From Candidatus Gottesmanbacteria bacterium GW2011_GWA2_43_14 (GTDB taxonomy: Bacteria > Patescibacteriota > Microgenomatia > 2-02-FULL-39-11): DNA of 64,000 nucleotides. The first letter of the stretch is position 1; the number at the start of each line of letters is the position of its first letter. The DNA lies in the NCBI GenBank assembly GCA_000999095.1, contig LCFP01000002.1:5736-69735 (forward strand). Reading direction: 5' to 3'. Position numbers and translations under genes: made by a program. The notes beneath the pieces were generated by a model that saw nothing but the letters and a program-made list of their open reading frames with translations, did no database searches and was not told where the DNA came from. Positions 4,135 through 58,866 of the stretch are shown one piece after another.

Positions 4135-4383
4135 CTATCTTATTCATCGGGAAGTGTAGGATTAGTGGTACTTCATCCTTAGCAATATTTAATACTGCTT
4201 ATTGAATGAAGTTAGAATATTCTATGGTACTAAAACATTCTATAAATGCAGATAATTTTAAATTAGTTATAAAAGCTTGCGCAGAGCATAGAGACAAAAA
4301 AATATTTTGAACTTCCTGGAAGTGCATTCACAAAAGAGAATGCAGTTATAGATTTATAATGCCCTATAGTATAATTCGACTTT

Positions 4384-5349
4384 ATGAATACGGAAAATCC
4401 CAGAGCACGGGGGTTACATCATCTTCAGCCGTCAGATCCTGTAATGGATCAGTGGGAAAAAATCGGTTTAATTGAACCTGATTTGGCACTTGTAAGGCAA
4501 TATGCATCAGAACTTGATGATTTTATTTATTTTTACCATCAAAAATTTAACTCATGGGTACAGAGTTTTGGAGGAAAATCATATTCTGAGATCACCACAA
4601 TTTCTCAGCATATGCTTCTCAAATTGTTGGGGACAACATCAAATGAAGACAGAGAAAAGTTTTCCTCCACAGCCTTTCCCAAATTAGCCCACCTCACCTG
4701 GAGAATTGTTTCAGCGATTGATGATTTTGCTGACAGACAATCTACGAACGCGGCAGATTTAGAAATCCTTACTGACAGCGAAGGAACAAAAGTAGCTGAC
4801 ATGATCAAGGAAATAACCAGAATTCCCAATTCCGACAAAGCCGGTCTTTGGTTTATTAAGCAAACACTTATATATATTGAAAAACATGAAATAGCTGTAT
4901 TAACCTTTGAGGAGGCAAAAGGTGCAAAGGAAAAAACAACAGGTATATTTACTCAGGCTGTAACTTTGGGCGCGTGGCCATTTCTTATGGTTAATTTCCC
5001 CCGACAAATGTCCCGGTTCCCCATTAAAAAATTTGTGCAGCATTCCATATCAGGTTCTCTGATTGCACAATGCCTGGATGATATAGCGGATTTCAGGAAT
5101 GATTTAGGAAATTCTGATTCGAGTTCTTTACTGATTTCGGCCGCAGGAAAAGCCGGAGAAAAAGACATATTAATGGATATGCTAAAGACTGGAATTCCGA
5201 TTACAATTGCAGAATTAATAAAGCGTAAACTGTATACACCAATTATATTTACGGAATATTTTCAATCTCTGTTAAATAAAATGCCTCAAGCGCCTTCCGA
5301 TATGAGATCATATTTTACGTATCAGTTTTTCAACCTTGAAAGTGATTGA
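4384..5349 (+). CDS. Class I isoprenoid-synthase-fold protein (polyprenyl synthetase / squalene-phytoene synthase-like) with two DDxxD motifs
   Basis: AIDDFAD at aa 112-116 and LDDIAD at aa 231-236, about 119 aa apart. This matches FARM/SARM spacing. GSLIAQCLDDIAD resembles the GxxFQxxDDxxD second motif. A TATAAT at 4370-4375 lies only 8 nt before the ATG. Confidence 0.4.
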   Translation: MNTENPRARGLHHLQPSDPVMDQWEKIGLIEPDLALVRQYASELDDFIYFYHQKFNSWVQSFGGKSYSEITTISQHMLLKLLGTTSNEDREKFSSTAFPKLAHLTWRIVSAIDDFADRQSTNAADLEILTDSEGTKVADMIKEITRIPNSDKAGLWFIKQTLIYIEKHEIAVLTFEEAKGAKEKTTGIFTQAVTLGAWPFLMVNFPRQMSRFPIKKFVQHSISGSLIAQCLDDIADFRNDLGNSDSSSLLISAAGKAGEKDILMDMLKTGIPITIAELIKRKLYTPIIFTEYFQSLLNKMPQAPSDMRSYFTYQFFNLESD

Positions 5350-5571
5350 TCCGAGATTAATTTCCAAGACGGTCTTGTAAATTTAGATTCAACACGATGT
5401 GTTCCTCTGTTTCTTATACTAAAGTTTTTTTAACATACGATCGGCTATCTTTTGTAAACCGCCTTGTACCGAATTGTACAGGCTATTGGACGAAGTTCTA
5501 ACATATTATTTATTTTTCAGCTCTCTTTTCGGTGCGAAGTGATTAGCTATGATTTGTGCTCCCGACCTTAA

Positions 5572-6003
5572 CTATATTTTTTTACCACTCACATCACCAA
5601 TCGGCTCGACTATTTTCCAGTAGGAATCCTTTCGGACGACTTTGCCCTTTTGAAACTCCCAAAGATCACAACCTCGCACATTCAAAATATCCCCTGATGT
5701 TGAAGTTCCAGTGAGCGTCCATTCTGATACACCCGTATCTGCATATGCTGACACCCAATGTCTATCGTCTCCGTAGTGAACGTCAGGAATACCTTCGAAT
5801 CGACTGGCAAGAGCTTTACGCACCTGGTCCTTGCCGACGAAGCGTTGTCCCCAGGGTTCAGGGCCCCTTGGAAAATCAAAGGAGCAGTCATCAGAGAAGA
5901 ATTCCATAATCGCATCGAGATCATGATTATTGAATGCTTCAAGAATTTGCTTTAAAGTCCCGACTGTGATGTCCCCATGGTTTATATTTCTTTTAACTGA
6001 CAT
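5572..6003 (-). CDS. SnoaL-like / NTF2-like (ketosteroid isomerase-like) small enzyme
   Basis: 143 aa; the motifs TLKQILEAFNNHDLDAIMEFFSDDC and the WEF...GK...SYW pattern are typical of SnoaL_2/NTF2-fold proteins. Local GC is clearly higher than the flanks. Confidence 0.55.
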   Translation of the reverse strand: MSVKRNINHGDITVGTLKQILEAFNNHDLDAIMEFFSDDCSFDFPRGPEPWGQRFVGKDQVRKALASRFEGIPDVHYGDDRHWVSAYADTGVSEWTLTGTSTSGDILNVRGCDLWEFQKGKVVRKDSYWKIVEPIGDVSGKKI

Positions 6004-6144
6004 TATCTAATTTTAACAGATTTTCCTCCGAGTTGCGGACAGTATTGAGAACTTATATTTTAGCCTGTCAGATAAGCTTATTTAATTATATGTACAGGCT
6101 ACTGGACGATGTTGTAACTTATTTCGCAAAGCAAGTTGGGTCAA

Positions 6145-6618
6145 TTATCTTTTTATTTCTTGCTCTACTTGTAAAACATACGTATCTCCACTGGAAGTTA
6201 TTATTCGTAAGAACCATTTACCATCTTTTGTAAGTATTCCGTCAGCGTTCTCTCCGTTTGTCATATTTAAAACATTAAACGTCGCTTTGATATTTTCAGG
6301 TCCTTTTTGATTATAGAATGTAAAATTTCTTGTTGATTCATCTTTTAATCTTTCTTCGTAAACAATAATTGCACCTTCGTATTCTAAACCTTTTAAATCC
6401 GAATCTTCAACTTTGTTTATTCTCAATGCTTGAGGTAAAGAAGTAAACCCATGAAAACGAAGGTTGGTTTCAAAACCCTGAATAAGTCTGTCTTGCCCGT
6501 AAGTTTCGCCAATGTTTTTAGTTTTTGTTCCATCAATCGGAGATAATCGGTTAAATTTATCAATGCTTTGATATAAATTTGATAAATTATTTTGAATAAT
6601 TGCTGGTCTTATATCCAT
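6145..6618 (-). CDS. Hypothetical protein
   Basis: 157-aa ORF with AT-rich codon usage like the host. No recognisable motif. Confidence 0.35.
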   Translation of the reverse strand: MDIRPAIIQNNLSNLYQSIDKFNRLSPIDGTKTKNIGETYGQDRLIQGFETNLRFHGFTSLPQALRINKVEDSDLKGLEYEGAIIVYEERLKDESTRNFTFYNQKGPENIKATFNVLNMTNGENADGILTKDGKWFLRIITSSGDTYVLQVEQEIKR

Positions 6619-6938
6619 AATTTTGGTCTTTTAAGAATAATCTAATACTTATACTATAATTTGTAAAGCGAAATAAACGAAATAAATTACAGATATAAAT
6701 TGATATAGTAGCGTCTATAAATTTGTACACCTTATTTAACGATATTCAAACCGAAACTTTGGACTATTGGAATAATATTTTCCTTAATTTAAAAGACTAT
6801 ATTTGTACTAGGCTCTGAAGTTAGGATCTCTTTAAAAATACTATTAGAACGAACCACATAATTACATTTCTCCTATATTCAAATATATTAATTGCTTATC
6901 CTATTTAAATAAAATAATATCGAATTAAATATTTATAA

Positions 6939-8147
6939 TTGAAAATGAAAAATGAAATAAATATATGGTCAATAAAGAATAAAAAAAATAAATTTCTTCA
7001 GATCAAATATTTCTTAATATTATTAGCGCTACTTTTGATCGTATTCGCTATCTATTTCCAAATTTTAAATAAAATTAATTTATTAACGATTCAATTTCAA
7101 ACTACTAATCCATCTCCTACTATTAATCCGGAAGAAGTAAAAAAGGTTAAAAAAGAAAAGTACGTTCAAAATATTCTTTCGTCTATGACACTTGAAGAAA
7201 AGATCGGACAGATGATTATGTGGGGTATAAATGAACCTGTATTATCTTCCGAATCAGCATCTATGATAGAAGATACTCATGCAGGAGGAGTGATAATAAT
7301 GATTAATAAAGATCAAGTATTCACACCACAACAGATCAACAAGCTAACTCATCAAATCAAGTATTTAAATAACAAAATACCGCTTTTTATTGCCATTGAT
7401 GGAGAAATCGGAATAATAAAATCTAAAATATCTGGTTTTGAAAATTATAATCAGTTTCCAGAATATATGGATGACAGTAAATTCTGCTCCGAAGTATCTG
7501 ATATATCAAACTTTCTTTATGATAATGGAATTAATGTTAACTTTGGAATTATTGCTGATATTGGTTGGAATCAAGGTTTTATCAAATACCGAACATATGG
7601 AAATACTCCTGAAAGTGTAAGAAACAGAATTACTACAGCAATTGATTGTTCAAATAATAATTTACTTATAACTGTAAAACACTTTCCCGGGCATGGAAGA
7701 ACTGTAGTAGATTCTCATTATACTTCTCCCATTATTGAGACCGACTATGACAAATGGCTAAAAACAGATAAAGTTCCTTTTCAAGAAGCTATAGATAAAA
7801 AAGTGGATCTCGTTATGATGGGACATTTGATTTATAACAAAATCGCTAGTGAACCAGCCAGTTTATCACTGGTTCATAATAATAATGTCCGTCAAATGGG
7901 TTTTGATGGAATTATTATTACTGATGATTTGGGTATGTTAGAAAGTAGTGGAATAGAACCTAAAGAAGTTCTAAATAAGGCAATTAATGCTAAAAATGAT
8001 ATTTTGTTATATGTAAACCATAGGCTTGATGCGAATGAAATAATCAATCAAATCGTTAATGAAGTTGAAATTCATAATATTTCTGTAAATAGAATAAATG
8101 AAAGTGTTCAACAAATATTAAAAAGTAAATATTCAATAATTGATTAA
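6939..8147 (+). CDS. Glycoside hydrolase family 3 N-terminal domain protein (NagZ-like beta-N-acetylhexosaminidase), membrane-anchored
   Basis: EEKIGQMIMWGI and KHFPGHGRTVVDSHYTSP (the GH3 KHFPGHG motif). N-terminal TM segment. Confidence 0.7.
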   Translation: MKMKNEINIWSIKNKKNKFLQIKYFLILLALLLIVFAIYFQILNKINLLTIQFQTTNPSPTINPEEVKKVKKEKYVQNILSSMTLEEKIGQMIMWGINEPVLSSESASMIEDTHAGGVIIMINKDQVFTPQQINKLTHQIKYLNNKIPLFIAIDGEIGIIKSKISGFENYNQFPEYMDDSKFCSEVSDISNFLYDNGINVNFGIIADIGWNQGFIKYRTYGNTPESVRNRITTAIDCSNNNLLITVKHFPGHGRTVVDSHYTSPIIETDYDKWLKTDKVPFQEAIDKKVDLVMMGHLIYNKIASEPASLSLVHNNNVRQMGFDGIIITDDLGMLESSGIEPKEVLNKAINAKNDILLYVNHRLDANEIINQIVNEVEIHNISVNRINESVQQILKSKYSIID

Positions 8148-8267
8148 TTACCTAAATTGTGCTCTTTCAGTCGTTGTTTAAGATTTTCAGAGTATCCGAT
8201 GTAAATCCAAGAAGGGAAATTTATACTTTGTAAAACATAAACGTAGTGAAACTTAAACATAAAAATA

Positions 8268-8306
8268 GGGACGCACCAGCCGGTGCATCCCTCGCTTTAT
8301 TGTTTT
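8268..8306. terminator. Bidirectional intrinsic terminator-like hairpin
   Basis: GGGACGCACC-AGCC-GGTGCATCCC, a 10-bp stem with one mismatch, followed by CGCTTTATTGTTTT on the + strand. An A/T-rich run also precedes it on the other strand. Lies downstream of the GH3 gene. Confidence 0.45.
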
Positions 8307-8703
8307 AAATACAGTTTCATTATTATACGGATTGGATTCCTGACTTCGGACATTTAGTGCCCCAAAGACCGTAATTTCTCCAGTTGTCCACAAAGTTTTG
8401 GATCTTCAATTGTGGTTTCCACAAATCCAGTTTCTCCAGTCTTCAGAATGGTTATCTGTGGGCTAAAATCTTTTGAGCCACTTTTAAGAGGTGTCCGAAG
8501 TCAGGTGACTTTCTCTTTTTTAATAGACCAACACCGGATAGTTTGTTGATATGAAAGGTAACGGTGGGCTGCCGCAGGGATAAGTGTTCCACAATTTCGG
8601 TAACCGTTGCTTACCTTCCGATTTTTTTAAGGTAATCCAAAATGGTCAGCCTGGACGGAATACTGGCTGTTTCCAAACACTGTCGGCATCTCTGGTGAAT
8701 CAT
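8297..8703 (-). pseudogene. Disrupted paralog of the ArsR-family regulator gene at 11086..11385 (frameshifted, with the MITE inserted)
   Basis: The minus strand gives MIHQRCRQCLETASIPSRLTILDYLKKIG (compare CHKCLKNLMEPSRLKIFDYVQKS). After a frameshift it gives RQPTVTFHINKLSGVGLLKKRK (compare RQPTVTFHVNKLAEAGLLQKKK), then the MITE, then NPIRIIMKLYLKQ* (compare EVIIQTKHL). Confidence 0.5.
8339..8506. mobile_element. MITE-like non-autonomous element, 168 bp, with perfect 14-bp terminal inverted repeats (CCTGACTTCGGACA ... TGTCCGAAGTCAGG)
   Basis: Perfect 14-bp TIRs read directly from the sequence. The element interrupts the reading frame of an ArsR-family paralog, and its 168-bp length equals exactly 56 codons. 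No internal ORF. Confidence 0.55.
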
Positions 8704-8748
8704 ATTTATTGGTATCTATCGGAAGAATATTATTTAAACACCAAAAAG

Positions 8749-9672
8749 TCAATTATTATAGCTTATCAGGAGAGCTCCGTCATCGTAAATCATACCCACT
8801 CCCGGAGCGTAGCGTTTGGTTGAAGGCGGAGTTTCTTCAACATAAAGTACATTATTAAAAATTCCTGCGGGAGTGTTATAATTTTGTTCAAATCTGATAT
8901 GGGCAGCCCTGTCCATAGCTATACCTGGAGCTACTTCCTGCTGGTAAGTTTGTCCCACAGTTGGATTAGCCGGCATGACAATTCCCGGTTTATTTGATCC
9001 TTCTCCGGCCCTCCAGGCACCGGAATGACCGACAATTTGCCCGCCGGAATAGATATCAACGTCCTCTCCGTAATAGCAGACCGTACCGTCCGGGGCGGCA
9101 ACAAAGAAATTACGGGAAATTTCAATAAGATTCCCGTTATTGGTTTCATATTCTTCCACTACCCTGGTTGTGATTCCCGCAACGACTTCAGTCTGATTTA
9201 ATACTGAAAATTTTACCGTAAAAGTTCCGTCGGATATGGTATTAACTTTACCTACCGGAAGGGGAAAATAAGGATTGGTTATATTTAATGAGAAAGGTCC
9301 GTTGGTTGGGTCGCAGATCGAAATATCCAGTTCTCCGGTTGCAGGTTGAGTAGGCTGGGTACCGGTTACCGTAGGAAAAGGGCTTGAATTTTTATTGTAA
9401 TTATTCAGCCAGATAACGTAATCAAGACCGTCAACCTTTCCGTTATTGTTGAAATCTCCGGATAGCCTGCCGTCGCTGACTGTTTTGTTATAATTTTTAA
9501 GCCAGATAACATAATCAATTCCATCCACTTTGCAGTCACGGTTTGCGTCCCCCGCAAGCTCCGTAAGGCAGGTTTGGGCCTGAACTTCAGGAACCGGTTT
9601 ATTCAGAAAATAGAAATCTGTTAATAAAATTATTAATGAAAGAAGAATGTAGGCAAATATTTTCCTAAACAT
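8749..9672 (-). CDS. Secreted protein with a dockerin type I repeat pair
   Basis: Signal peptide MFRKIFAYILLSLIILL...AQ. Two dockerin repeats: DANRDCKVDGIDYVIWLKNY and DFNNNGKVDGLDYVIWLNNY. Confidence 0.6.
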   Translation of the reverse strand: MFRKIFAYILLSLIILLTDFYFLNKPVPEVQAQTCLTELAGDANRDCKVDGIDYVIWLKNYNKTVSDGRLSGDFNNNGKVDGLDYVIWLNNYNKNSSPFPTVTGTQPTQPATGELDISICDPTNGPFSLNITNPYFPLPVGKVNTISDGTFTVKFSVLNQTEVVAGITTRVVEEYETNNGNLIEISRNFFVAAPDGTVCYYGEDVDIYSGGQIVGHSGAWRAGEGSNKPGIVMPANPTVGQTYQQEVAPGIAMDRAAHIRFEQNYNTPAGIFNNVLYVEETPPSTKRYAPGVGMIYDDGALLISYNN

Positions 9673-10049
9673 GTTTATAATTCAGTATCACAAATTATTT
9701 TTTTAATTTCAACAAGTTATTTGAAAAAGTAACAAAAGGGGGCGCAAAAGGGCAAAAGGGGACGGTTCTTAAATAGCCTCGTTTTTGATAAAATAGGAGT
9801 ACCGGATTTTAAACGATACTTGGTACTCGCTTTATATATAAATGATAAAGGTAGTTGCTATGTTTTTAAAATAGTCAAGATAAAGCTAATAATGAATCAT
9901 ATAACTTTAATCATTTATTGGTAAAAAAAACTATTGAGATATCTTGTACAAAGATAGCTGTAAAGTCATTATTCGAAGCTAAATATATTAAAACGTAAAT
10001 GAGTGAAATACAGTGAGGTTAATTTATTAGTTTAATATTCGGTTATTAG

Positions 10050-10123
10050 TACCCCGTGCCGGATTCGAACCGGCGATTCTCTGGCTGAAAACCAGATGTC
10101 CTGGGCCGCTAGACGAACGGGGC
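10050..10123 (-). tRNA. tRNA-Glu (anticodon UUC)
   Basis: Reverse complement GCCCCGTTCGTCTAGCGGCCCAGGACATCTGGTTTTCAGCCAGAGAATCGCCGGTTCGAATCCGGCACGGGGTA folds as a cloverleaf with anticodon loop TTTTCAG. CCA is not encoded. Confidence 0.85.
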
Positions 10124-26096: not shown

Positions 26097-26720
26097 CTAT
26101 TGATACTTCCGGTAAACAGCCACGACCCGGCCCTGGATTTTGACATGGGTTGTGAAAATGGGAGACATGGCGGCATTGGCAGGTTCGAGTCTGATTCTCT
26201 CTTTTTCAAAAAAGATACGTTTCAGAGTAGCCAGGCCGTTCGGCAGGATTGCCACGACAATATCTCCGTTTTGGGCTTCACTTTGGTGTTGGACAACCAC
26301 AAAATCACCGTCGAGGATGCCTTCATCAATCATTGAGGTACCTTTTACCTGGAGGATATATCCTGGCTTCTTGCCGGAAAGCATGCTGGCAGGGACAGAC
26401 TGGTAATAATTGGGGTCAGTGTGCGGTTCCAGGGGGCTGCCAGCTGCTATGTAGCCGAGTACGGGTAATTCGACCGCAGTTTCATTTTCATTGAATTTAG
26501 CTCTTTGGCTGACTACCTCAATCGAACGTTCATAGCCGGGAGTCCGCTTGATATAGCCTTTTGTTTCCAGTCTGGAGAGATGTTCATGTATAGTCGAAGC
26601 GGCACTCAAGCCCAGGCTCTCGGCGATTTCCATCAGCGTCGGGGCATAGCCATGCCGCTGAATGTACTGCTGGATGAATTCCAAGGTCTGCCGTTCGCGA
26701 TTATAAAGGATGTTTGCCAT
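26097..26720 (-). CDS. lexA: LexA repressor (S24 peptidase)
   Basis: N-terminal wHTH (PTLMEIAESLGLSAASTIHEHLSRLETKGYI) and C-terminal S24 domain with GTSM and DGDFVVV. Confidence 0.9.
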   Translation of the reverse strand: MANILYNRERQTLEFIQQYIQRHGYAPTLMEIAESLGLSAASTIHEHLSRLETKGYIKRTPGYERSIEVVSQRAKFNENETAVELPVLGYIAAGSPLEPHTDPNYYQSVPASMLSGKKPGYILQVKGTSMIDEGILDGDFVVVQHQSEAQNGDIVVAILPNGLATLKRIFFEKERIRLEPANAAMSPIFTTHVKIQGRVVAVYRKYQ

Positions 26721-26944
26721 AAATTAAGCGAAAGAATAAATGCTTAATATCATTTAAACTAAGGTATTAAATCCAGAATAGATTAAAAAAAAGCGAATGT
26801 CAAGATGGACAAACCTGATAAAACTGATGCTTTCTGTAAACACCATAATTACCTATAGGGTGGTTCAACGGATGAATCATAAAATTACAATATAGGGGGG
26901 TCAAAAATTGCGCGGATTTGTGTTAAAATTAAAGATTCCAAAAA

Positions 26945-29050
26945 ATGAATTTTAAACTTAAATCACCTTTCCAGCCTACCGGAGACCAGCCTCGGGCTGT
27001 TAGGAGTCTGACCGATGGCTTGGAAAAAGGACTTAAATCACAAGTACTTTTGGGGGTGACCGGCAGCGGCAAGACCTTCACCATGGCCAAAGTCATAGAA
27101 AAACTCAACAAACCCACTTTGATCATCTCGCACAATAAAACACTGGCTGCTCAGCTTTATCAGGAATTCCATGAATTTTTTCCGGAAAATGCCGTATCCT
27201 ATTTCGTTTCCTATTATGATTTTTATCAGCCCGAAGCTTATATTCCCCGGAGCGATACCTATATTGAAAAGGAAACTGAAATCAATGAAGAAATCGATAA
27301 ACTGCGGCTTTCCGCCACTACCAATCTTTTGACCAGGGCTGATACGATTGTGGTCGCCTCCGTTTCCTGCATCTACAGTTTGGGTAACCCGGAAGAATAC
27401 GGCAAATTCGTCCTCGAATTGGCCTGCGGTGCCGTCATCAGCCGTGAAGCTATTTTTATGCGTCTGGTGGATCTGCAGTATCAGAGAAGTGATTTTGGTT
27501 TCCACAGGTCGACTTTCCGGGTGCGTGGAGAAAATATCGATGTTTTTCTGGCATATGAGCCATATGCCTTAAGAATTAAAAATAACGGGCAGAAAATCAT
27601 CTCGATAAAAAAAATCGATCCTTTAACCGGTAAAGTCCTGGAAGAAAAAGAAAAAGAAGTTATATATCCTGCCAAACATTATCTGTCGGAAACCTTCAGC
27701 CAGGAAGATATTTTCAAGGAAATTCAGCGTGATCTTGAGAAAAGGTGTCAGGAATTTAAAAAAGACGATAAACTTTTGGAGTCCCACAGACTTAACCAGA
27801 AAGTCAATTTTGACCTGGAGATGATCAGGGAAATGGGGTATGTCAACGGTATTGAAAATTATTCCCGTTATTTCGACGGTCGCAAACCGGGTGATCCGCC
27901 ATATACCCTGCTTGATTATTTTAATAAACCTTACGGCCAGGATTGGCTCTTGATCATCGACGAGTCGCATATAAGTGTCCCGCAAATCCGCGGCATGTAT
28001 AACGGCGACCGCAGCCGTAAACAGGTCCTTTGCGATTACGGCTTCCGTCTGCCTTCTGCCCTTGACAACCGACCCCTGCGCTTTGAAGAATTTCTTACTC
28101 GCATCCCCCGGACTGTCTTTATATCCGCGACTCCGGCTGATTGGGAAATCAGACAAGCCTCCGAATCTGCCGGTAAAAAGGGATTGCCCGGTAACGGCAT
28201 CGCAGAACAGTTGATCCGCCCGACAGGTATAACCGATCCCAAAATCCAAATACGGCCAACCAAAGGCCAGATTATCGATCTCGTCAGTGAAATTCTGGAA
28301 CGTAAAAAAAGGAATGAGCGGGTATTGGTAACCACATTGACTAAAAGAATGGCCGAAGACCTGGCAGACTATATTAAAACGGAAAAATACCGTGATTTGG
28401 AAAAGTTTAAAAACATAACTGACGCGGAAGCACCTCTGGCTGCCTATCTTCACAGCGATATCGAAACATTGGAAAGAAGTGATATATTGGATGATTTAAG
28501 AGCCGGAAAATATGACTGCCTGATCGGTATTAATCTCCTGCGGGAGGGGTTGGATCTGCCGGAAGTCTCTTTAGTTGCCATTCTCGATGCCGACAAGGAA
28601 GGTTTTTTGCGGAGCGAAACATCATTGATCCAAACCATGGGTCGGGCTGCCAGGCACATTGAAGGCAGGGTGATCATGTATGCCGACAACATAACCGGAT
28701 CGATGCAGAGGGCTATATCTGAAATTGACCGCAGGCGCCGGATTCAGAAGGAATACAACCAGAAAAATAAAATTACGGCAACACAAATTGTCAAACCCAT
28801 CAGGGCAAAACTAGTCGAGAAAAAAGAGGAAAAAGACAATTTGGAAAATCTCTTTTTGCAAAAGAAAGAAAAACTGGATAAATTTATTTCACTCGATCCG
28901 GACGAATTGACACCGTTTGACCTGAGGAAACTGGCTAACAGGCTCGAACACGAAATGAAAAAAGCTGCCGCGGCTCTGGATTTCGAACTGGCAGCTTCAA
29001 TCCGGGACAAAATAAGGGAGATAAAAACTCGCCTGGGAGAAAAAATATGA
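26945..29050 (+). CDS. uvrB: Excinuclease ABC subunit B
   Basis: [12 protein letters not shown] Walker A, helicase motifs, and a C-terminal UvrB/UvrC interaction region. Confidence 0.95.
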
Positions 29051-31962
29051 ACGGAAAAATTATAGTTAAAGGAGCCCGGGAACACAATTTGAAAAATATC
29101 AGCCTGGAAATCCCTAAAAATAAGCTGATAGTATTTACGGGCGTTTCCGGCAGCGGCAAATCGTCACTGGCATTTGACACGATTTATGCGGAAGGGCAGA
29201 GGCGGTATGTGGAAAGTCTGTCATCCTACGCCCGTCAATTTCTGGGAATAATGGGCAAGCCGGATGTCGATTCAATCGAAGGCCTTTCACCGGCCATATC
29301 AATCGATCAAAAAAGCACTTCCCATAATCCGCGTTCAACCGTCGGCACCATAACGGAAATTTACGACTACCTTAGATTGTTATATGCCAGAACAGGTCAT
29401 CCTCATTGTCCTACCTGCGGCCGTGAAGTCGTCAGGCAGACCATCCAGCAAATTGCCGATAATGCACTTCAATTGGCTAAGAAATTATTAAAGAACAATC
29501 TGAAAAAAAGCGGGGTACGGCTGATGATCCTCTCCCCGGTTGTCAGGGATAGAAAAGGGGAGTTCAGCAAATTATTTGAAAATTTAAAAAGTAAAGGTTA
29601 CCCGGGGTTACGCATTGACCGGACTTTTTATTCCATGGATGAGGATTTTGTACTTCTAAAAACTAATAAGCACACAATCGAGGTCGTTGTCGACCGTATT
29701 ATTGTCAATAAAAACAACCTCAAGAATTCGGAAAGCCTCCTTATCAAAAGACTGACTGAAGCCGTTGAACAATCAGTCATGTTATCGCAGGGGCTGGTTC
29801 TGGTTTCGGAGATTGAGGACGCCTCATTTGATTTTCCGGAAAAACCGAAAAAATGGACGGACCATCTGTTTTCTGAAAAATTTGCCTGCCCCTGGTGTAA
29901 TATTTCCCTAAGTGAGATAGAACCGCGTATTTTTTCCTTTAACTCTCCCCACGGTGCCTGCAGCGAGTGCACGGGTATAGGGCACCTTCTCAAGGTTGAT
30001 CCCGATCTGATCATCAATTCCAATCTGTCGATAAGCGAAGGCGCCATTATACCTTTTTCCAAATTAATACTGGCCGATACCTGGTATGGCCGGATAGTCG
30101 CCAAAGCAGCCGGAGAGATAGGCATAGACCTAAGGAAACCTTTACAACTGGCCGGAACGGATAAAATTCAAAAATTGCTATACGGTACGGGTGACAGATT
30201 GTATGAAGTTTCGGGTGAAAACCGTCACGGCAGGATTGTCTCTATTGCCGAAACTTTCAAAGGCATTATTCCGGAACTGGAGAGGCGTTTCAGTGAAACA
30301 GAATCTGACTACGTCAGAACTGAGATCGGCAAATATCTCCGGCAGGAAGTCTGCCCTGCCTGCCAAGGTAAGCGGCTGAAGCCGGAAGCCCTCTCCGTGA
30401 CAATTAACGGCAAGTCCATAGTCGAGATAACTTCCTTGCCTATCACTAATGCGTTTTCCTGGGTAGAATCACTTTCCGAAAGCCAAAACAGCCGGGAAAA
30501 GGCCATTGCCGATTTGATAGTCCGTGAACTGAAAAACAGGCTGTCTTTTCTGATTTCGGTCGGACTTGATTATCTGACCTTGGAAAGAAGCGCCCAGTCC
30601 CTGGCCGGGGGCGAAGCCCAAAGGATACGCCTGGCTTCACAGATAGGCTCAGGTCTTACCGGCGTTTTGTATGTTTTGGATGAGCCGTCGATCGGCCTTC
30701 ACCAGCGAGACAATTTAAGGCTGATCGCTACTCTGGAACACCTTAAAAATTTGGGCAACACGGTCATTGTCGTAGAACACGATGCGGAAATGATAAGAAA
30801 TGCGGACTGTATCTTTGATTTCGGTCCGGCTGCAGGAGAACACGGTGGAAAGATTATAGCTTCAGGCACGGTCACGGAAATTCAAAACAACACAAAATCC
30901 CTGACCGGCGATTATCTGTCGGGACGCAAAAAAGTCACCCGCAGCCTGAATCTTCTGACGGAAATGCCGGAAAAGAATTCCGAACTCGTCATTACCGGTT
31001 GCCGGGAAAATAACCTTAAAAATATAAATGCGAAATTTCCGCTTAAGAAATTGATTTGCGTCACCGGCGTTTCCGGCAGCGGCAAATCTACCCTGGTCGT
31101 TGACACTTTATATAGGGCGCTTTATAACCACTTTAACCCGTACTCGCGCGAAAAAGGAGGTAAATACGACCGTCTGGACGGTCTGGAACTGGTTAAAAAA
31201 GTCATCCTGATTGACCAGTCGCCGATTGGACGCACACCCCGCAGCAATCCCGCGACCTACACCGGTTGTTTTACTTTCATCAGGGAACTCTTTGCCCAGA
31301 CGCCGGAAGCCAGGGTCAGAGGCTGGCGGCCGGGAAGATTTTCCTTCAATGTCAAAGGCGGCCGCTGCGAAGTATGCGAAGGCGAGGGACAAACCAAAAT
31401 AGAAATGCAATTTATGCCGGACGTTTACATCACCTGCGATGTTTGCCATGGATCCCGTTATAACAATGAAACATTGGAAGTCAGGTATAAAGATAAAAAC
31501 ATCGCCGATGTCCTGAAAATGACGGTTGAGGAAGCTCTCTCATATTTTATCCATATACCCGGGCTTTACGGGAAAATGCAGACTTTGCACCAGGTGGGAC
31601 TCTCCTATATAAGGCTCGGCCAGCCGGCACCGCACCTTTCGGGAGGCGAAGCTCAGAGAGTCAAGCTGGCCAGTGAACTCTCCAAAAAAAGTACCCGCGA
31701 TACCATATATATCCTGGATGAGCCGACGACCGGTCTTCATTTTGCCGACTTGCAGAATCTTTTGAATGTGCTTCATTCCCTGGTCAGCTTGGGAAATACA
31801 GTCATTGTCATTGAACATAATCTGGATATCATCAGGTGGGCTGACTGGATTATTGATTTGGGTCCGGAGGGCGGTGACCGCGGAGGACAAATCCTTATAT
31901 GCGGCCTCCCGAAAACTGTTTCTGAAGCCAAAAACTCCTTTACCGGCCGGTATATCCGTTAA
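29047..31962 (+). CDS. uvrA: Excinuclease ABC subunit A
   Basis: Tandem ABC ATPase with two [20 protein letters not shown] Walker A sites, zinc-finger cysteines and LSGGEAQR signatures. Confidence 0.95.
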
Positions 31963-31968
31963 ATAAGT

Positions 31969-33276
31969 ATGACTAACTTTTCCCTGTCTGATTTAAATAG
32001 GATACCGGAGACAACCGGTGTTTATCTTTTTCAGGATAAAAATCGCCGGATTATATATATAGGCAAAGCCGTCAACCTGAAAAAAAGAGTCCAATCATAC
32101 TTCCGGGCAGATTTCTACGACGCTAAAAAAAAGCGTCTTGTGGAGAATGTCAGTGAAATTTCATTAATCGAGGTGCGCAATGAATTTGAAGCCCTCATTC
32201 TGGAAGCCAAACTCATTAAGCAAAATCAACCTAAATACAACATCTCTTTAAAGGATGACAAACAGTATATCTATCTGATTGTTACAGACGATGAGTATCC
32301 CAGAATTTTACTGGCCAGGAAAATAGACACGCAAGGCGAACTTTTCGGACCCTTTCCCTCAAAAAAGACTGTCAAGGTAATTATCGGCCTGTTGAGATCC
32401 ATTTTTCCCTTCTGCACGCAAAAACCCAAAAGCAAAAGAAGTTGTTTTTACAGCCATCTGGGACTTTGCATACCTTGCCCGGCGGCAATCAGAATAATGC
32501 CGAAAAAAGAAGCTCAGGAGGCAAAAAAACTGTATTTAGGCAATATCCGCCGGATCAAAAAAATACTTAAAGGATCAATCGACCAGGTAAGCAGGGAATT
32601 AACCCAGAAAATGACGGAGTTATCCCGGCAAAACAAGTATGAAGAGGCAGCTGTCATCCGGGATCAGCTGAAAAAGCTGGAGGAAATTACCGAAGTAAAA
32701 TTCCGTCCCGATCAGTATATGGATAACCCTTATTTAGCGGCCAATCTCAAGCAAAAAGAACAGCAGATGCTTGAAGAGTCGTTAAGCCGGGTATTAAACC
32801 GCAAAGTCAAAGCGGAAACGATAGAATGCTATGACATCAGCAATCTGTCCGGCCAACACGCGACCGGCTCGATGGTAACTTTCCACTTGGGTTGGCCTGA
32901 CAAAAAACGCTACCGGCATTTCCGCATCAAAACCATGTCAACTCCTGACGATTACAACATGCTTCATGAGGTTATTGTCCGTCGGTTGAGGCACAGCGAA
33001 TGGCCGTTGCCTGACTTGTTCATAGTAGACGGTGGGGAAAACCAATTAAAGGTATTTTTGCAGGTCTTACAAAAGCTGGAATTGAATATTCCGGCAATTG
33101 CCTTAGCCAAACGCTTTGAAAAAATTTATTATGCCGCTTCTGATGGTATCGGAACACTGGAATTTTCAAGGGATACCCCGGCCTTGCAGTTGGTGCAGCG
33201 GTTGCGGGACGAAGCCCACAGGTTTGCCGGACGCTACCACCGTCTGCTGAGAATTAAATATTTATTAAATGGTTGA
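31969..33276 (+). CDS. uvrC: Excinuclease ABC subunit C (short form lacking a C-terminal HhH region)
   Basis: GIY-YIG motif GVYLFQDKNRRIIYIGKAVNLKKR and C-terminal DEAHRFAGRYHR endonuclease motif. Only 435 aa. Confidence 0.8.
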   Translation: MTNFSLSDLNRIPETTGVYLFQDKNRRIIYIGKAVNLKKRVQSYFRADFYDAKKKRLVENVSEISLIEVRNEFEALILEAKLIKQNQPKYNISLKDDKQYIYLIVTDDEYPRILLARKIDTQGELFGPFPSKKTVKVIIGLLRSIFPFCTQKPKSKRSCFYSHLGLCIPCPAAIRIMPKKEAQEAKKLYLGNIRRIKKILKGSIDQVSRELTQKMTELSRQNKYEEAAVIRDQLKKLEEITEVKFRPDQYMDNPYLAANLKQKEQQMLEESLSRVLNRKVKAETIECYDISNLSGQHATGSMVTFHLGWPDKKRYRHFRIKTMSTPDDYNMLHEVIVRRLRHSEWPLPDLFIVDGGENQLKVFLQVLQKLELNIPAIALAKRFEKIYYAASDGIGTLEFSRDTPALQLVQRLRDEAHRFAGRYHRLLRIKYLLNG

Positions 33277-33312: not shown

Positions 33313-33711
33313 ATGAAAACAATTATCCGGAAATATTTTGCCGCTGTTTTTTCAATTGCTATTGTCTCGCAACTGAAAACCGGACTGGTGCTGGAAAACG
33401 GCTGGCAAAACACAGCCTCTGCGGCAGCACTTTTAACGGTTATTCTTTTTATCAAACCCCTGATTGACGCCCTTATGCTGCCTTTAAACCTGCTGACATT
33501 GAATCTTACAAACTGGCTTATGTATATTACCTTAATCTTTATCTGGTCGCTGCTTTCCTGGCAGGTTAATTTAACTACATTTAATTTTCAGGGGGCAAAA
33601 ATCGGTCCGATTGCCCTGTCTGCCGCTTTATTGCCGGCCTGGCAGGCAGGCATCCTATCTGCTCTGTTGGTAGTTTTAATTTTAAAATTTTTCGGCTGGC
33701 TGTTTCGGTAA
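33313..33711 (+). CDS. Small 4-TM membrane protein (YvlD/holin-4-like)
   Basis: 132 aa with about four hydrophobic helices. Confidence 0.35.
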   Translation: MKTIIRKYFAAVFSIAIVSQLKTGLVLENGWQNTASAAALLTVILFIKPLIDALMLPLNLLTLNLTNWLMYITLIFIWSLLSWQVNLTTFNFQGAKIGPIALSAALLPAWQAGILSALLVVLILKFFGWLFR

Positions 33712-34701
33712 ATGAAAAATAAATCCTATATTGTCATCGGAGGCGGAACAGGCACTTTTTCAGTCCTTACCGGTCTCAAAAAATACACAGATAATATCGC
33801 CGCTGTTGTTTCCATGGCTGATTCGGGCGGCAGTGCCAAGAAAGAACGTGATGAGTGGGGTTTGCTCCCTTCAAGCGATATCCGTAAATCACTGCTGGCT
33901 CTGGCAGACGTCTCTGCCCAGGACAGCCTTATTCTTCGTAAGCTATTTGAATACCGTTTTGCCAAGGGAATAGGCGTATCGGGCATGACATTCGGAAATC
34001 TTTTTCTGGTGGCCCTGTCGGATATCGTCAAATCACAAACCAAGGGAATTGAAATGGCCAGTGAACTTCTGAGGATTCGCGGTAAAGTATTGCCGGTTTC
34101 TCTGGACAAAGTCGATCTGGTCGCCGAATACGCTGACGGGTCGGTTGTTATCGGTGAGCATGATATTGACGAACCCGTTCATAACGGCCGCATCAAAATT
34201 GAGAAACTATACCTTAAGCCGCAGGCGAAAATTTCTCCGCACACCAAAAATGCGATTGCTGAGGCTGATGTTATTATTATCGGTCCCGGAGGGTTTTACA
34301 CTACTGTCATTGCCAATCTGGTAGTTGACGGAGTTGCCCAGGCAATCAACAACTCCAAAGCGAAAAAAGTATTTATCATGAATCTGATGACGGAATACGG
34401 CCAAACGTTCGGCTTTTCCGCCAGTGATTTCATCAGGGAAATGAACAAATACATCATTGTCAACGGATTGGATTATGTTTTGGTAAATAAGTCGCCGATT
34501 CCGGAAAAAATTCTGAAGAGATATTCCCAATTCCGGGCAACACCCGTTGTCAATGACCTTACGGGTGACTGGCCATTCAGAGTAGTCGGTCTGGATCTGC
34601 TGTCAAAAACAATTGTGCGAAAACAACCCGGCGACACCTTAAGAAGAAGCCTTGTCAGGCATGATCCGGAAGCGATTGCCCGATTCTGTCTCAAAATCTG
34701 A
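33712..34701 (+). CDS. YvcK/CofD-family gluconeogenesis factor-like protein
   Basis: YIVIGGGTGTFSVLTGLKKYTDNIAAVVSMADSGGS, typical of the UPF0052/CofD fold. Confidence 0.8.
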   Translation: MKNKSYIVIGGGTGTFSVLTGLKKYTDNIAAVVSMADSGGSAKKERDEWGLLPSSDIRKSLLALADVSAQDSLILRKLFEYRFAKGIGVSGMTFGNLFLVALSDIVKSQTKGIEMASELLRIRGKVLPVSLDKVDLVAEYADGSVVIGEHDIDEPVHNGRIKIEKLYLKPQAKISPHTKNAIAEADVIIIGPGGFYTTVIANLVVDGVAQAINNSKAKKVFIMNLMTEYGQTFGFSASDFIREMNKYIIVNGLDYVLVNKSPIPEKILKRYSQFRATPVVNDLTGDWPFRVVGLDLLSKTIVRKQPGDTLRRSLVRHDPEAIARFCLKI

Positions 34702-34747
34702 ATCCGTCTGCCGGGAAAAAAGAGCCGTAATAGGGTATAATAGGAAT

Positions 34748-34966
34748 ATGCTTCAAATCCTGGTCATTGTTCAAATCATCATTTCCCTGACTCTTCTGGT
34801 CACTATTCTCATTCAGGCAAAAGGTGTGGGATTGGGAAGGGCATGGGGGGGCGGCGGTGAATTCTATAAAAGCCGGCGCGGTGTGGAAAAAGTAATCTTC
34901 CGCCTGACGATCGTTTTGGTTGCCCTGTTTTTGATATCATCTGTTTTAAACGTCATCTATCTTTAG
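34748..34966 (+). CDS. secG: Preprotein translocase subunit SecG
   Basis: MLQILVIVQIIISLTLLVTILIQAKGVGLGRAWGGGGEF; start trimmed to the internal ATG. Confidence 0.7.
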   Translation: MLQILVIVQIIISLTLLVTILIQAKGVGLGRAWGGGGEFYKSRRGVEKVIFRLTIVLVALFLISSVLNVIYL

Positions 34967-34977
34967 CACTTCAATTC

Positions 34978-36510: not shown

Positions 36511-37077
36511 TTGGTATTCAATTTTGGGGGAAGAAAATTTTTTAATCATATGAGTCAAAAAGGATTTATATATATAGTTATCATCATTTTTGTCGTTGCA
36601 ATTGCTGGTACAATTGGATACTTTGCTTTGTTAAAAAAACAAACACCGACTACTGAAACGAACCAACTGCAACAGACAAACACGCCAGTAACGCCCCAAA
36701 TACAGACAACAAAAAATAATCCAACCGCAACACCGCCGCCAGTCACTCCTAAAAGTGTAACTCAAAAAAATGTTGATGATTGCAATTCCATTAGTAATTC
36801 GTCTTTCCGCTCGATTAACCAATACGAGGTTGGACTTGGACCCAATGGTCCAGCGATGGGATATTGGGGCATTCAATTTCAGAAAGGCACAACTCTCTCT
36901 GACTATGGTGAGCCAACATTTCAGTGGGGCCACTCCGATGTTTCCGAAAGCGGTACCTATACCTGCAAGGACAATGTTTTGCAGGTTAAATTTTTTGCCT
37001 ACTCTATTACCGCTTACTACGATGGGAGCAAAAAAATCTTGACCTGGGATGGTGTTGAATATAAGAAAGTTGAATGA
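36511..37077 (+). CDS. Hypothetical membrane-anchored protein with a Thr/Pro-rich linker
   Basis: N-terminal TM segment, a TPxT-rich low-complexity linker and a C-terminal globular part. Preferred over the overlapping minus-strand ORF 36631..37257. Confidence 0.35.
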   Translation: MVFNFGGRKFFNHMSQKGFIYIVIIIFVVAIAGTIGYFALLKKQTPTTETNQLQQTNTPVTPQIQTTKNNPTATPPPVTPKSVTQKNVDDCNSISNSSFRSINQYEVGLGPNGPAMGYWGIQFQKGTTLSDYGEPTFQWGHSDVSESGTYTCKDNVLQVKFFAYSITAYYDGSKKILTWDGVEYKKVE

Positions 37078-42794: not shown

Positions 42795-42886
42795 AAGAAG
42801 CATTATTTGAATTTGTCTTGAAATAGGTTCTAACTTCGTCCACAGTTCGCAGCAGATTTTGATAAGTAGGTCGGGCACGAAAATTG

Positions 42887-43103: not shown

Positions 43104-44246
43104 TTACTTTTTCCTTTTTAAAAGGATCACAACAATTACCGCAAATATCAGTACACCGATGAATATAAGTATTGTCGGGGTAATACGAAACGGTGTAGTT
43201 TTTGTTCCGTTTTCCTTATATCCCTGAGTGTCACTCTCATCTGTATTTAAATTTCCGTTATCGTTAAGTTCGGCTTGTGCCAGTTCTGTTTCAATAAGCT
43301 CAGTTTCTTCTTTAAGAACATCAGTATAATTAAATTCAGTTACCTCATATCCATCTCCATTAACAGTATATCTGTCACCCGGACTTAGCGGTAATTTTCC
43401 GTTATCCGGCAGGGTCACCTCTACGCTTCCTTCCATGACATCGAATTTAGTTTCATTTGTTTCTTCTAAGTGAGATACGCCAAACGAAGTTCCCAGGACA
43501 CCGGCAACTGTCAGATAGGTTTCTACTTGAAAAGTTTTTCCCTGCTTCTTTAAATTAAAAAACGTTTCACCAAATACTATCTGCACTCCCTGAAATAACA
43601 TGGTTACCTTGGTGTTTGATTTTATTTTCAGTATTGATCCGTCGGGATATTTAATAATAAATCTTGAGTTTGGACCTGTCTTGATTACATCCCCTTCCCG
43701 AATATTAATAGGTCCGTCAGATGGAATATCTTCATAAGTCTCACCGTTATTGCGTGAAAACTGAGCAGTTCCTTTCACAAGCCCTCCGTCTACACCTTGC
43801 TTAGGAAGAAAATCAGTTTCTATATTCCACGATCCGTCAAAAGCCTCCGGATTATCAACTGTAAAATCAACTCTTAATGTATCGAAGACAGTAGTATAGG
43901 TACCTCTAATTAAATTAAACGAAAGGTCACCTATGATAAATTCCCCGTTTGGACCTCCTGAAAATGTACCTGTAAATTCATCACCACCGTATCCGTTACA
44001 ATTTGAAGTGCACTCTGCCCTACCAGAGACCTGTGAGTATTGTCCTGATGGATCCAAAGCTCCTACATTCCAAAACTCCAGATGATATACCAAAGTAAAA
44101 TTCCACACTTGGACAGTATCTGACGTTGCCGTGACCTTTTGGGGAGGTGGATAAGCATGGACATACCGGATCGGCCAGATGAATACAAAAAATAGTATTA
44201 AGCCGATGATTGTAATAAGGTTTCTCCGGATTTTCATAATCTTCAT
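43104..44246 (-). CDS. Cell-surface protein with N-terminal signal/TM, FecR-like beta domain and C-terminal TM anchor
   Basis: N-terminal MKIMKIRRNLITIIGLILFFVFIW and C-terminal ILIFIGVLIFAVIVVILLKRKK. The segment GDVIKTGPNSRFIIKYPDGSILKIKSNTKV is FecR-domain-like. Confidence 0.4.
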   Translation of the reverse strand: MKIMKIRRNLITIIGLILFFVFIWPIRYVHAYPPPQKVTATSDTVQVWNFTLVYHLEFWNVGALDPSGQYSQVSGRAECTSNCNGYGGDEFTGTFSGGPNGEFIIGDLSFNLIRGTYTTVFDTLRVDFTVDNPEAFDGSWNIETDFLPKQGVDGGLVKGTAQFSRNNGETYEDIPSDGPINIREGDVIKTGPNSRFIIKYPDGSILKIKSNTKVTMLFQGVQIVFGETFFNLKKQGKTFQVETYLTVAGVLGTSFGVSHLEETNETKFDVMEGSVEVTLPDNGKLPLSPGDRYTVNGDGYEVTEFNYTDVLKEETELIETELAQAELNDNGNLNTDESDTQGYKENGTKTTPFRITPTILIFIGVLIFAVIVVILLKRKK

Positions 44247-57831: not shown

Positions 57832-58866
57832 CTATTTCTCTCTTAAGACATAAAAAGTAGCTTTGCCTTTTGCTTTCCTACTAATTAAACCTAACTCTAT
57901 TAATTTTTTAAAATCTAATGCTCTAGTTGCCTTCGCTCGGTCAACTAATTTTGCATAATCCCGGTCAGAGATAAATCCCCTTTCTTTAATAAACTCTAGC
58001 ATCTTTAGGTGATAGGGTTTAAGTTGGGTTTCTGGACTCATTCCAACCTGTGGAAGTAGTTTTTGGACCCTTAGTAGTTCATCGATAATTCCTTCTGTAA
58101 AATATTCTAGCCAAGGAGTGAAATCAATTTTATCTGTTAATTCATAGTAATTGCCAAATTCTCCTACAGTTTGAAAATATTTAGTAACATTTTTATTGTA
58201 ATAATGCTCAAAACTGAAAAGGTTAAAAGTATTTAATCCCATTTCAGCCAAAAGCACTTTTGTAGCAAGGCGGGTTGTTCTTCCGTTTCCATCCATAAAA
58301 GGGTGAATAATTACCATTTGCTTGTGGAATATACCAGCTAAAATAAGAGGATCAATTTCGTTTCGGTTGCTATTTACAAACCCAATTAAATCCTCTATTA
58401 GTTTCTTTACATCTTTTGCATCAGGAGGTAAATATATAACTTTTCTAGTTCTCGGATCGTTTACAACTACTGGTTTCTCTCGCAATTTTCCAGATTCAAA
58501 TTTAGGTAATAATCCTTTAGTAATTTCTTTTTGAATTCTTAATATCAGATTAAGAGATAATTTTACTTGTGCCTTTTCAAGTTTTTCATTTAAATTCTGG
58601 AGTGCTTGATTGTAATTTAAAATCTCCTTCTCGCTATCCCTTATATGAACAGACTTTGATATGAGGATTTTTTTAACCTCGGTTAAAGGAAAAGGATTCC
58701 CTTCGATACTCGTTGAGGCGTATGTTGAAACAGCCCTTGCAGTCTTTTCAAGCTCTATTAAAACAACATTAGGAAACCGCCTATTATTTAGTTCATTTAC
58801 TAAAGCATTAACTCGTTTAATATTTGATAAAAGACGATCTGTAATAGTATATCGAGGTGTTAACAT
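57832..58866 (-). CDS. Fic family protein (AMPylase-type) with C-terminal winged-helix domain
   Basis: Canonical Fic motif HPFMDGNGRTTR. Confidence 0.85.
   Translation of the reverse strand: MLTPRYTITDRLLSNIKRVNALVNELNNRRFPNVVLIELEKTARAVSTYASTSIEGNPFPLTEVKKILISKSVHIRDSEKEILNYNQALQNLNEKLEKAQVKLSLNLILRIQKEITKGLLPKFESGKLREKPVVVNDPRTRKVIYLPPDAKDVKKLIEDLIGFVNSNRNEIDPLILAGIFHKQMVIIHPFMDGNGRTTRLATKVLLAEMGLNTFNLFSFEHYYNKNVTKYFQTVGEFGNYYELTDKIDFTPWLEYFTEGIIDELLRVQKLLPQVGMSPETQLKPYHLKMLEFIKERGFISDRDYAKLVDRAKATRALDFKKLIELGLISRKAKGKATFYVLREK

Follow-up and report, generated by a model that had tools for sequence, protein, structure and literature searches.

Williams reportedly described, in 2002, integrative elements that target tRNA genes and are flanked by attL/attR repeats. 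The cis-mobilizable elements (CIMEs) of the Streptococcus integrative and conjugative elements (ICEs) are also flanked by att sites, lack genes for recombination and transfer, and build up in tandem at a single site; their mobilization by a partner has been demonstrated experimentally. In integron cassette arrays, the attC site is an imperfect palindrome that folds as single-stranded DNA and contains RYYYAAC and GTTRRRY core sites. Bacteria of the Candidate Phyla Radiation (CPR) presumably depend on other cells, and their genomes are tiny; to our knowledge, little is known about the routes by which they gain genes. Here we describe a locus in Candidatus Gottesmanbacteria, a CPR lineage, within a stretch of 64,000 nt (positions 5,736 to 69,735 of the forward strand of contig LCFP01000002.1; hereafter the window, to which coordinates refer unless another locus is named). 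Proteins identical to those encoded here occur on contigs from Rifle aquifer groundwater. In the window, four copies of a 33-bp motif, termed c0 to c3, lie downstream of the 3' end of a tRNA-Glu(UUC) gene and bracket three successive genes, one of which encodes a SnoaL/NTF2-like protein. The repeats are probably att-like junctions of an array of tiny, mostly single-gene modules, which would be anchored at the tRNA-Glu gene and would lack an integrase of its own.

The closest described system is found in Dehalococcoides, where tandem islands lie downstream of ssrA, the gene for tmRNA, and are bounded by 20-bp repeats of its 3' end (PMC3146451). A conserved motif adjoins the repeat, and the content of the islands differs between strains (PMC3146451). 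Some of the islands have no integration genes and are read as cis-mobilizable elements gathered by accretion; such elements, and accretion, are mentioned there for the ICEs of Streptococcus as well (PMC3146451). Partial copies of tRNA genes are common as attR relics (PMC9897764). The locus in the window resembles the ssrA islands in that tandem units stand behind one small RNA gene, with exact repeats of its 3' end in relatives, variable content, and integration genes absent in some. However, the ssrA islands range from kilobases to tens of kilobases in length, and a serine recombinase module is present in many of them, whereas the units described here measure 0.4-1.3 kb and contain one gene each, with no recombinase found in the scanned open reading frames (ORFs). 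Furthermore, the ssrA repeats are exact, while the junctions in the window are a diverged 33-bp motif that is 4-5 nt longer than the corresponding tRNA segment. Accretion at RNA genes is known at a larger scale; single-gene units with diverged 33-bp junctions are what differs here.

Comparison with the other systems gives a similar mixture. As in tRNA-targeted elements, the 3' part of a tRNA gene serves as the anchor, the repeats are co-oriented, and exact 17-19-nt copies of the tRNA end are present in relatives. Unlike those elements, the locus has no integrase by attL in the scanned ORFs, and its units fall well below the size of any island or prophage described. Most modules apparently join at the terminal GTAC of the tRNA, while the repeat of a module encoding a GIY-YIG protein starts in the T-loop. 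The att-like flanks and the tandem build-up at one site are shared with the CIMEs, but no partner element or integrase is known here. In layout the locus is also similar to an integron array, since it has a fixed primary site (the tRNA end), single-gene units that each end in a repeat resembling a recombination site, and mixed cargo, including a toxin-antitoxin pair and an NTF2-like protein. However, it has no attC fold, no core sites, and no IntI, and its repeats are a linear motif related to the tRNA end. It is not a member of the integron family.

Repeats in the window

The preliminary description had drawn attention to a pair of direct repeats around the SnoaL gene, and this pair is real. 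The sequences TGTACAGGCTATTGGACGAAGTTCTAACATATT (c1, positions 5475-5507) and TGTACAGGCTACTGGACGATGTTGTAACTTATT (c2, positions 6091-6123) are direct repeats with a spacing of 616 nt and are identical at 29 of 33 positions (29/34 once the 34th base is counted). Both belong to the minus strand, on which c1 reads AATATGTTAGAACTTCGTCCAATAGCCTGTACA. As had been described, they flank the SnoaL gene (5572..6003, minus strand; 143 aa; Pfam SnoaL_2, E = 2e-19), at 64 nt from its stop side and 87 nt from its start side. The DNA likeness between c1 and c2 is confined to 33 nt and has sharp edges, and a degenerate 28-mer that spans both gives no match in 100 dinucleotide-preserving shuffles. Tandem gene duplication as the origin of the pair was ruled out because the SnoaL protein and the neighboring 157-aa protein are unrelated and because the likeness is limited to these 33 nt. 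A CGGTACA scrap at 5465-5471, 5 nt past c1, may be a relic of an earlier join or may be due to chance. The same applies to extra GTAC scraps behind the tRNA gene in a related locus (L031 4893-4920), where the sequence reads GGGGTAC CGCGTAC CATACGGTACA.

A search for further copies, which the preliminary description had proposed, adds two more to the pair. A third copy, c3 (TTTCGGTTTGAATATCGTTAAATAAGGTGTACA, 6724..6756, minus strand), is of a diverged type; it was detected by the repeat finder at a spacing of 633 with 21/33 identities and lies beyond the next minus-strand gene (6145..6618), which encodes the 157-aa protein. A weight matrix built solely from 14 copies outside the window was then used for a scan of all 64 kb, for which 200 simulations gave null maxima with a 95th percentile of 16.5 and a maximum of 21.1. 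Exactly four matches in the window exceed the null 95th percentile: c1 (38.3), c2 (32.3), c3 (26.8), and a degenerate copy, c0 (23.8; AGAATATTCTAACTTCATTCAATAAGCAGTATT, 4191..4223, minus strand). The c0 copy is the outermost junction and adjoins a core gene of the PMT_2 family.

Read along the minus strand, the locus begins with the tRNA-Glu(UUC) gene (10049..10123, minus strand; ARAGORN and Rfam), which is followed by a segment containing a dockerin gene, a helix-turn-helix (HTH) pseudogene, a GIY-YIG remnant, and a glycoside hydrolase family 3 (GH3) gene. Then come c3, the 157-aa gene, c2, the SnoaL gene, c1, a gene for a 321-aa protein, c0, and the core genes. The four copies thus occupy four consecutive intergenic gaps between 4.19 and 6.76 kb, one copy per gap and all on the minus strand, which is also that of the tRNA gene. 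This gene, the anchor, stands 3.3 kb away and was not within the coordinates of the preliminary description. Three successive genes (321-aa, SnoaL, and 157-aa) are bracketed by c0-c3; the SnoaL gene is not alone in this.

The tRNA-Glu 3' end and the motif as junctions

The tRNA-Glu gene, whose 3' end reads ...GGTTCGAATCCGGCACGGGGTAC, ends in GGGGTAC, and the motif ends in the same GTAC; together they have GGTTCGAA...GTAC in common. The tRNA is nearly identical in five species, and the DNA downstream of it diverges right after GTAC. The same break in similarity is found at the ends of the motif, for example, when c3 is compared with the related locus L027. In addition, less diverged variants of the motif can be aligned end to end with the tRNA from the T-loop to the 3' end, with an insertion of 4-5 nt (L034b, p = 0.003; L027u, p < 0.0005). 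Only the variants designated B and C align significantly with the tRNA.

Modules with identical starts can be found behind either sequence. The leader of the SnoaL module, TATAATTAAATAAG, lies behind c2 in the window. In L035, an exact copy of the last 19 nt of the tRNA-Glu gene (L035 5677-5751), CAATCCGGCACGGGGTACA, stands 145 nt past that gene and directly abuts the SnoaL leader. A second module of ~390 nt, which encodes the GIY-YIG protein of 89-106 aa, starts with T[A/G]TCTTTCG[C/T]TAAAGCTACA. This start stands right behind the GTAC of the tRNA in L027 (TATCTTTCGCTAAAGCTACA...) and, in L034, right behind the GTAC of the motif that closes the SnoaL module on its 3' side (TGTCTTTCGTTAAAGCTACA...). 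Exact repeats of 17-19 nt of the tRNA-Glu 3' end bound modules in L027, L031, L034, and L035; in the first three of these, an exact 17-nt copy stands after the GIY-YIG module, and the copy in L027 has the T-stem variant of its own host, CCCCC. Judged from these junctions, the tRNA end and the motif are interchangeable as left-hand partners of the same module.

The window itself retains only a truncated GIY-YIG module (8148..8338, minus strand), which consists of the leader and the first 38 codons and is cut off by the GH3 gene. This remnant is 95.8% identical to L031 4927-5117, where it stands just after tRNA-Glu, although the core genes of the two genomes are only ~67% identical. GIY-YIG homing enzymes such as I-TevI and the Seg proteins usually recognize a long asymmetric sequence, and the one recognized here would be of that kind. 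Conceivably, the hotspot is of the nuclease's own making: after a cut in the tRNA-Glu 3' end or in the motif, repair templated by foreign DNA would bring in neighboring modules, a kind of homing without an intron that would replace conservative site-specific recombination. The position of the module exactly at the end of the tRNA or the motif in L027, L031, and L034, flanked by tRNA-end repeats, would suit such a mechanism, as would the truncated copy in the window. However, the protein, a predicted nuclease, comprises only a bare catalytic domain with no recognizable DNA-binding domain, the window copy is dead, and exact flanking repeats are more typical of insertion by an integrase. We consider this explanation improbable.

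The motif in other Gottesmanbacteria

On the gene strand the consensus of the motif is AATAnGTTCGAACTTCGTCCAATAGCCTGTAC(A), and ~19 copies are present in six Gottesmanbacteria genomes. Outside the window, it is present in five other Gottesmanbacteria genomes, with the loci L020, L021/L013, L027, L031, L034, and L035. These copies were gathered from loci of SnoaL homologs, which were scanned with nhmmer, with a weight matrix, and by counting mismatches. Applied to one genome per species, a loose pattern finds the motif in two other Gottesmanbacteria genomes, and its remaining eight matches look like chance. The copies are always intergenic, and within each locus all have one orientation. The genes between them are mutually unrelated and may lie on either strand. 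They include the SnoaL, 157-aa, and 321-aa genes, a glycosyltransferase family 2 (GT2) gene, genes for GreA and a cold-shock protein, and genes for proteins of 375 aa and 415 aa; the latter has a P-loop-type (Walker A-like) motif by eye and no Pfam match. Four of the bracketed genes are opposite to the repeats: the 321-aa gene in the window, GT2 in L031, a 207-aa gene in L020, and GreA in L034.

Behind the same tRNA, the six genomes carry different gene sets. L034 and L027 share the GreA unit at 93% identity, against ~70% for their core. Window positions 6725-6804 are 81% identical to L027 5826-5905, a stretch that lies directly upstream of the SnoaL gene in L027. Since a copy of the c3 type directly precedes SnoaL there, the window contains one extra unit, consisting of the 157-aa gene and c2.

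The preliminary description had also suggested that the repeats could be a duplicated promoter or terminator pair, which the evidence does not favor. A scan for consensus promoters and terminators finds no site that coincides with the repeats, four bracketed genes lie on the opposite strand, and no consistent hairpin is formed. About eight of the copies lie 3-65 nt after a stop codon, where they face a convergent gene, and five to six are in divergent regions. Neither a promoter nor a terminator would fit all of these locations. Positions just past stop codons, together with an intergenic location and a short, discrete unit with sharp edges, would be expected of a dispersed extragenic repeat (similar to repetitive extragenic palindromic (REP) sequences or miniature inverted-repeat transposable elements (MITEs)) or of a terminator-type element that plays no part in gene assembly. 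However, the motif has no hairpin and no T-run, a terminator would be useless in the divergent promoter regions, and only four significant copies are present in 64 kb, clustered by tRNA-Glu and pointing in one direction. This explanation is thus very improbable. A search with Rfam identifies only tRNAs in the window, none of them at the repeats.

The lack of a fold also bears on the idea that the repeats are attC sites of an integron cassette array without an integrase (CALIN). Such an array would account for the presence of n+1 repeats for n genes, for the mostly single-gene units of 0.6-1.3 kb, for the toxin-antitoxin unit in the arrays of L021 and L034, and for content that differs between relatives. 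However, when eight copies with their flanks were folded as single strands, z-scores were -0.8 to -1.6 and no hairpin was common to the eight; the attC core sites are absent, and no gene of the IntI type is present in the scanned ORFs. We regard a CALIN as exceedingly improbable. Inspection of the motif halves reveals no dyad symmetry, which rules out a core site of the Xer/dif type or any other dyad-symmetric core site.

A partial motif, AATAGGTTCTAACTTCGTCCACA, which lacks the GTAC end, is part of a region at 42822-43030 (plus strand) that adjoins a cluster of five tRNA genes. It is followed by ~120 nt of GC-rich, hairpin-forming sequence and then by a block, TTAAAAAGAAGTTCGAG[A/C]CGAC. The same layout is present in L020 (2541-2700), behind a full copy of the motif. 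Neither the GC-rich element at 42.8 kb nor that of L020 matches an Rfam family, and permissive scans give matches at chance level only. Part of the 42822-43030 region may be the terminator of a convergent FecR-like gene (43104..44246).

The SnoaL module

The SnoaL unit extends for ~616 nt, from GTACA to GTACA, and is kept as a block in six Gottesmanbacteria genomes; its similarity between species stops at the motif on both sides. At its 3' end, c1, the similarity ends at GTAC(A), and in all six loci this downstream break is at the GTAC of the motif. At its 5' end, a conserved leader (6004..6090, minus strand) starts with TATAAT immediately after the GTACA of c2, as judged from the six-locus alignment, and the sequence from GTACA onward is common to five of the six loci. 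The proposed comparison with relatives thus identifies a block-like unit; it also reveals that L027 lacks the 157-aa gene between the equivalent repeats.

Sequence divergence shows that species have exchanged the SnoaL module recently. When the window is compared with five other genomes, the SnoaL gene has a synonymous divergence (dS) of 0.19-0.43 and a ratio of nonsynonymous to synonymous divergence (dN/dS) of 0.29-0.61. In a comparison of the window with L021, three flanking core genes have a proportion of synonymous differences (pS) of 0.70-0.77, i.e., dS is >2 or saturated.

In the preliminary description, the gene was thought to be GC-anomalous, and this is not borne out within the window: its GC content of 0.447, compared with 0.420 for the window, is at the 64th percentile of 432-nt segments. 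The apparent contrast arises because its neighbors are AT-rich (0.308 for the 157-aa gene, 0.282 for the GH3 gene, and 0.380 for the 321-aa gene). Nevertheless, the sequence of the SnoaL gene marks it as foreign in origin. It keeps a GC content of 0.43-0.46 in host loci of 0.33-0.42. Its homologs have 79-87% identity in other Gottesmanbacteria and 73-80% in Bacteroidota, where they possess an N-terminal signal sequence, and its coding region is 80.4% identical at the DNA level to a gene of Rhodonellum (Bacteroidota). The possibility that the motif travelled with the gene from Bacteroidota was rejected, given that the Rhodonellum locus shares the coding region only and has an ordinary context with no motif.

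The earlier idea of a mobile cassette is largely right. It agrees with the block-like unit that has motifs at its ends, with dS values of 0.19-0.43 as opposed to >2, and with the tRNA-end junction of L035. The GC anomaly and the bracketing of SnoaL as the sole gene have to be given up. The insert with odd composition is not SnoaL but the adjacent gene for the 157-aa near-orphan, and it is this gene that is absent between the equivalent repeats of L027.

Several features of the SnoaL module can be noted in addition. The leader is conserved for ~85 nt in five species and contains GGAGG; between this element and the ATG, which comes ~19 nt later, lies a small ATCT...AGAT stem. So long a distance is unusual and may be a sign that the leader is structured or regulated. 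In L021 (5673-5939) and L034 (3-263), a toxin-antitoxin pair, an 84-aa protein and a toxin of the YafQ family, is placed immediately upstream of the SnoaL gene. The toxin gene ends with the codons GGTACACATAATCAGG (G-T-H-N-Q), which coincide with the GGTACA junction together with the beginning of the SnoaL leader, so coding sequence crosses the module boundary. Finally, the SnoaL protein P0002, from a 1-kb contig, has an N-terminal half of the window type and a C-terminal half of the L021 type; it arose either by natural recombination or through chimeric assembly of two co-occurring strains.

Proposed assembly of the array

If the repeats are att-like junctions, the array could have been built step by step. 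A module that has come from another cell would be attached to a GTAC, either the one at the 3' end of the tRNA or the one closing the junction of an earlier module. Each such joining would add one copy of the junction, and older modules would be pushed outward by accretion. Modules that carry no recombinase would need one supplied in trans or, alternatively, would depend on homologous recombination anchored on the tRNA and the motif.

Several observations weigh against this scheme. The window ORFs that were scanned, all of at least 110 aa, include no integrase, resolvase, or transposase; in particular, the tRNA-proximal end has no integrase, as no Phage_integrase, Resolvase, or transposase family is represented in these ORFs. 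Thus, the array fits only the integrase-less (cis-mobilizable) subclass of tRNA-anchored islands. The only recombination-type enzyme seen near the array of any relative is encoded by a DDE (rve) gene of the insertion sequence type in L021. The retrieved contigs with these genes all have the same arrangement, and there was no sign of an excised circle, an empty site, or a presence/absence variant; the array in the window may now be fixed. The alignment of c1 and c2 (type A) with the tRNA is not significant by itself (p ~0.6), and there is no exact tRNA-end repeat within the window, so the link to the tRNA comes through intermediate variants and relatives. The motif exceeds the tRNA segment by 4-5 nt and so is no simple copy of it. 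Moreover, the definition of the motif family is partly circular, since some of the external copies were found through their similarity to those in the window. Finally, the motif contains two small palindromes, TGTACA and GTTnnAAC, and 7 of 14 copies lie 66-127 nt upstream of a start codon on the same strand. Both features would also suit a regulatory site.

Indeed, the motif might be a cis-regulatory site shared by accessory genes, either an operator or an unusual promoter, to which an ArsR-type HTH_20 protein or an alternative sigma factor might bind. The module edges would then be marked only because transcription units survive rearrangement. Palindromes of this kind are typical of the sites of dimeric binding proteins, an HTH_20 gene is located near the array in several loci, and on the gene strand TTCGAA-N17-TACAAT resembles the spacing of -35 and -10 elements. 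However, the promoter scan is blank at the copies, and the final T of the putative -10 element is present in only 5 of 13. As promoters, the ~8 copies located just past a stop codon and facing a convergent gene could yield antisense RNA only, and the four bracketed genes on the opposite strand argue in the same direction. Furthermore, regulation does not account for the replacement of the motif by the tRNA-Glu 3' end, or exact copies of it, beside the same modules, for the motif variants that align with the tRNA, or for the breakpoints in similarity. Both a regulatory role for the motif and the survival of transcription units as the cause of the module edges thus seem rather unlikely.

A more far-reaching version of junction-based assembly would be a capture system similar to an integron in design. 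In this version the tRNA-Glu 3' end would serve as the fixed entry site, the linear 33-bp tRNA-derived motif would be the cassette site, and single genes would be captured and shuffled one by one across species, even across phyla, by an unrecognized recombinase or nuclease, for which the GIY-YIG protein is a candidate. So much specialization is possible but, in our estimate, unlikely. When viral contigs were searched for a phage attP, the motif did not turn up, nor did any informative tRNA-end copy; the two matches obtained are tRNA clusters of large phages.

As an array of att-like junctions, the locus would represent a concrete route of gene gain, in which single genes, including some that stem from other phyla, accumulate in tandem at one tRNA hotspot and are exchanged from species to species. 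Should a dedicated enzyme act on the 33-bp motif, it would provide a second, independent design for the capture of one gene at a time, beside integrons, and possibly a tool for the insertion of DNA at a defined site. If no dedicated enzyme is involved, the locus would still illustrate accretion at a tRNA gene clearly and on a small scale. In either case, the motif and the tRNA-end repeat may be used as a practical marker for recently acquired genes in Gottesmanbacteria genomes.

Two further observations concern enzymes and variation at these arrays. The DDE protein of L021 (4176-5261, minus strand), which has HTH_28/HTH_32, rve, and Mu-transposase C-terminal domains, is encoded 150 nt after tRNA-Glu. 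The short metagenome contig L008 matches window positions 5792-7379 at 100%, after which 322 nt (L008 1-322) are unmatched; the break is inside the GH3 gene and represents either a strain variant or an assembly chimera.

The 157-aa and 321-aa genes

The 157-aa gene (6145..6618, minus strand), which lies between c3 and c2, has a GC content of 0.308 and a third-position GC content (GC3) of 0.20. A word-indexed search of 5.8 billion proteins retrieves only the 157-aa protein itself, and an exhaustive search finds five remote relatives with 32-38% identity. As a test of the cassette idea, the context of a remote homolog in L036 was inspected; it is unrelated and contains no motif. This homolog (L036 509-991), the closest relative at 33% identity, is located beside SBP_bac_5, SecG, CofD, and holin-like genes, a set that is partly syntenic with window positions 33313-36315, which end at a tRNA-Leu gene. 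The neighboring window ORF 36511..37077 is no paralog of the 157-aa protein. The protein has no Pfam match, and a structure model from the single sequence is too poor to use (predicted local distance difference test (pLDDT) score of 44).

The 321-aa gene (4384..5349, plus strand) lies between c0 and c1 in the orientation opposite to the repeats. It belongs to a rare family and has a GC content of 0.38; its product has no Pfam match and no significant match by sequence in the PDB. A homolog with 60% identity is present in an unrelated contig, L039, where a fragment resembling the tRNA-Glu end, TCGATCCGGCAAGGGGTAG, is found ~220 nt downstream. The protein contains two aspartate-rich stretches, SAIDDFAD and QCLDDIADFRND, which resemble the DDxxD motifs of isoprenoid synthases.

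Other genes of the window

Between c3 and the tRNA, the GH3 gene (6939..8147, plus strand, opposite to the repeats; Pfam Glyco_hydro_3, E = 8e-46) is followed by the GIY-YIG remnant. The first gene 3' of the tRNA encodes a dockerin-repeat protein of 307 aa (8749..9672, minus strand; Pfam Dockerin_1), which is 68-70% identical to its counterparts in L027 and L034. It is adjoined by an ArsR/HTH_20-like frame with an internal stop (8510-8757, minus strand), which is ~69% homologous to the intact HTH_20 of L027. A second, intact HTH_20 gene is present on the far side of the tRNA, so the 8510-8757 segment resembles a displaced duplicate.

Farther away, a gene for a Fic-domain protein (57832..58866) lies inside a second AT-rich stretch (58-62 kb, GC ~0.34). 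A LexA gene beside uvrB, uvrA, and uvrC (26097-33276) forms a compact DNA-damage cluster.

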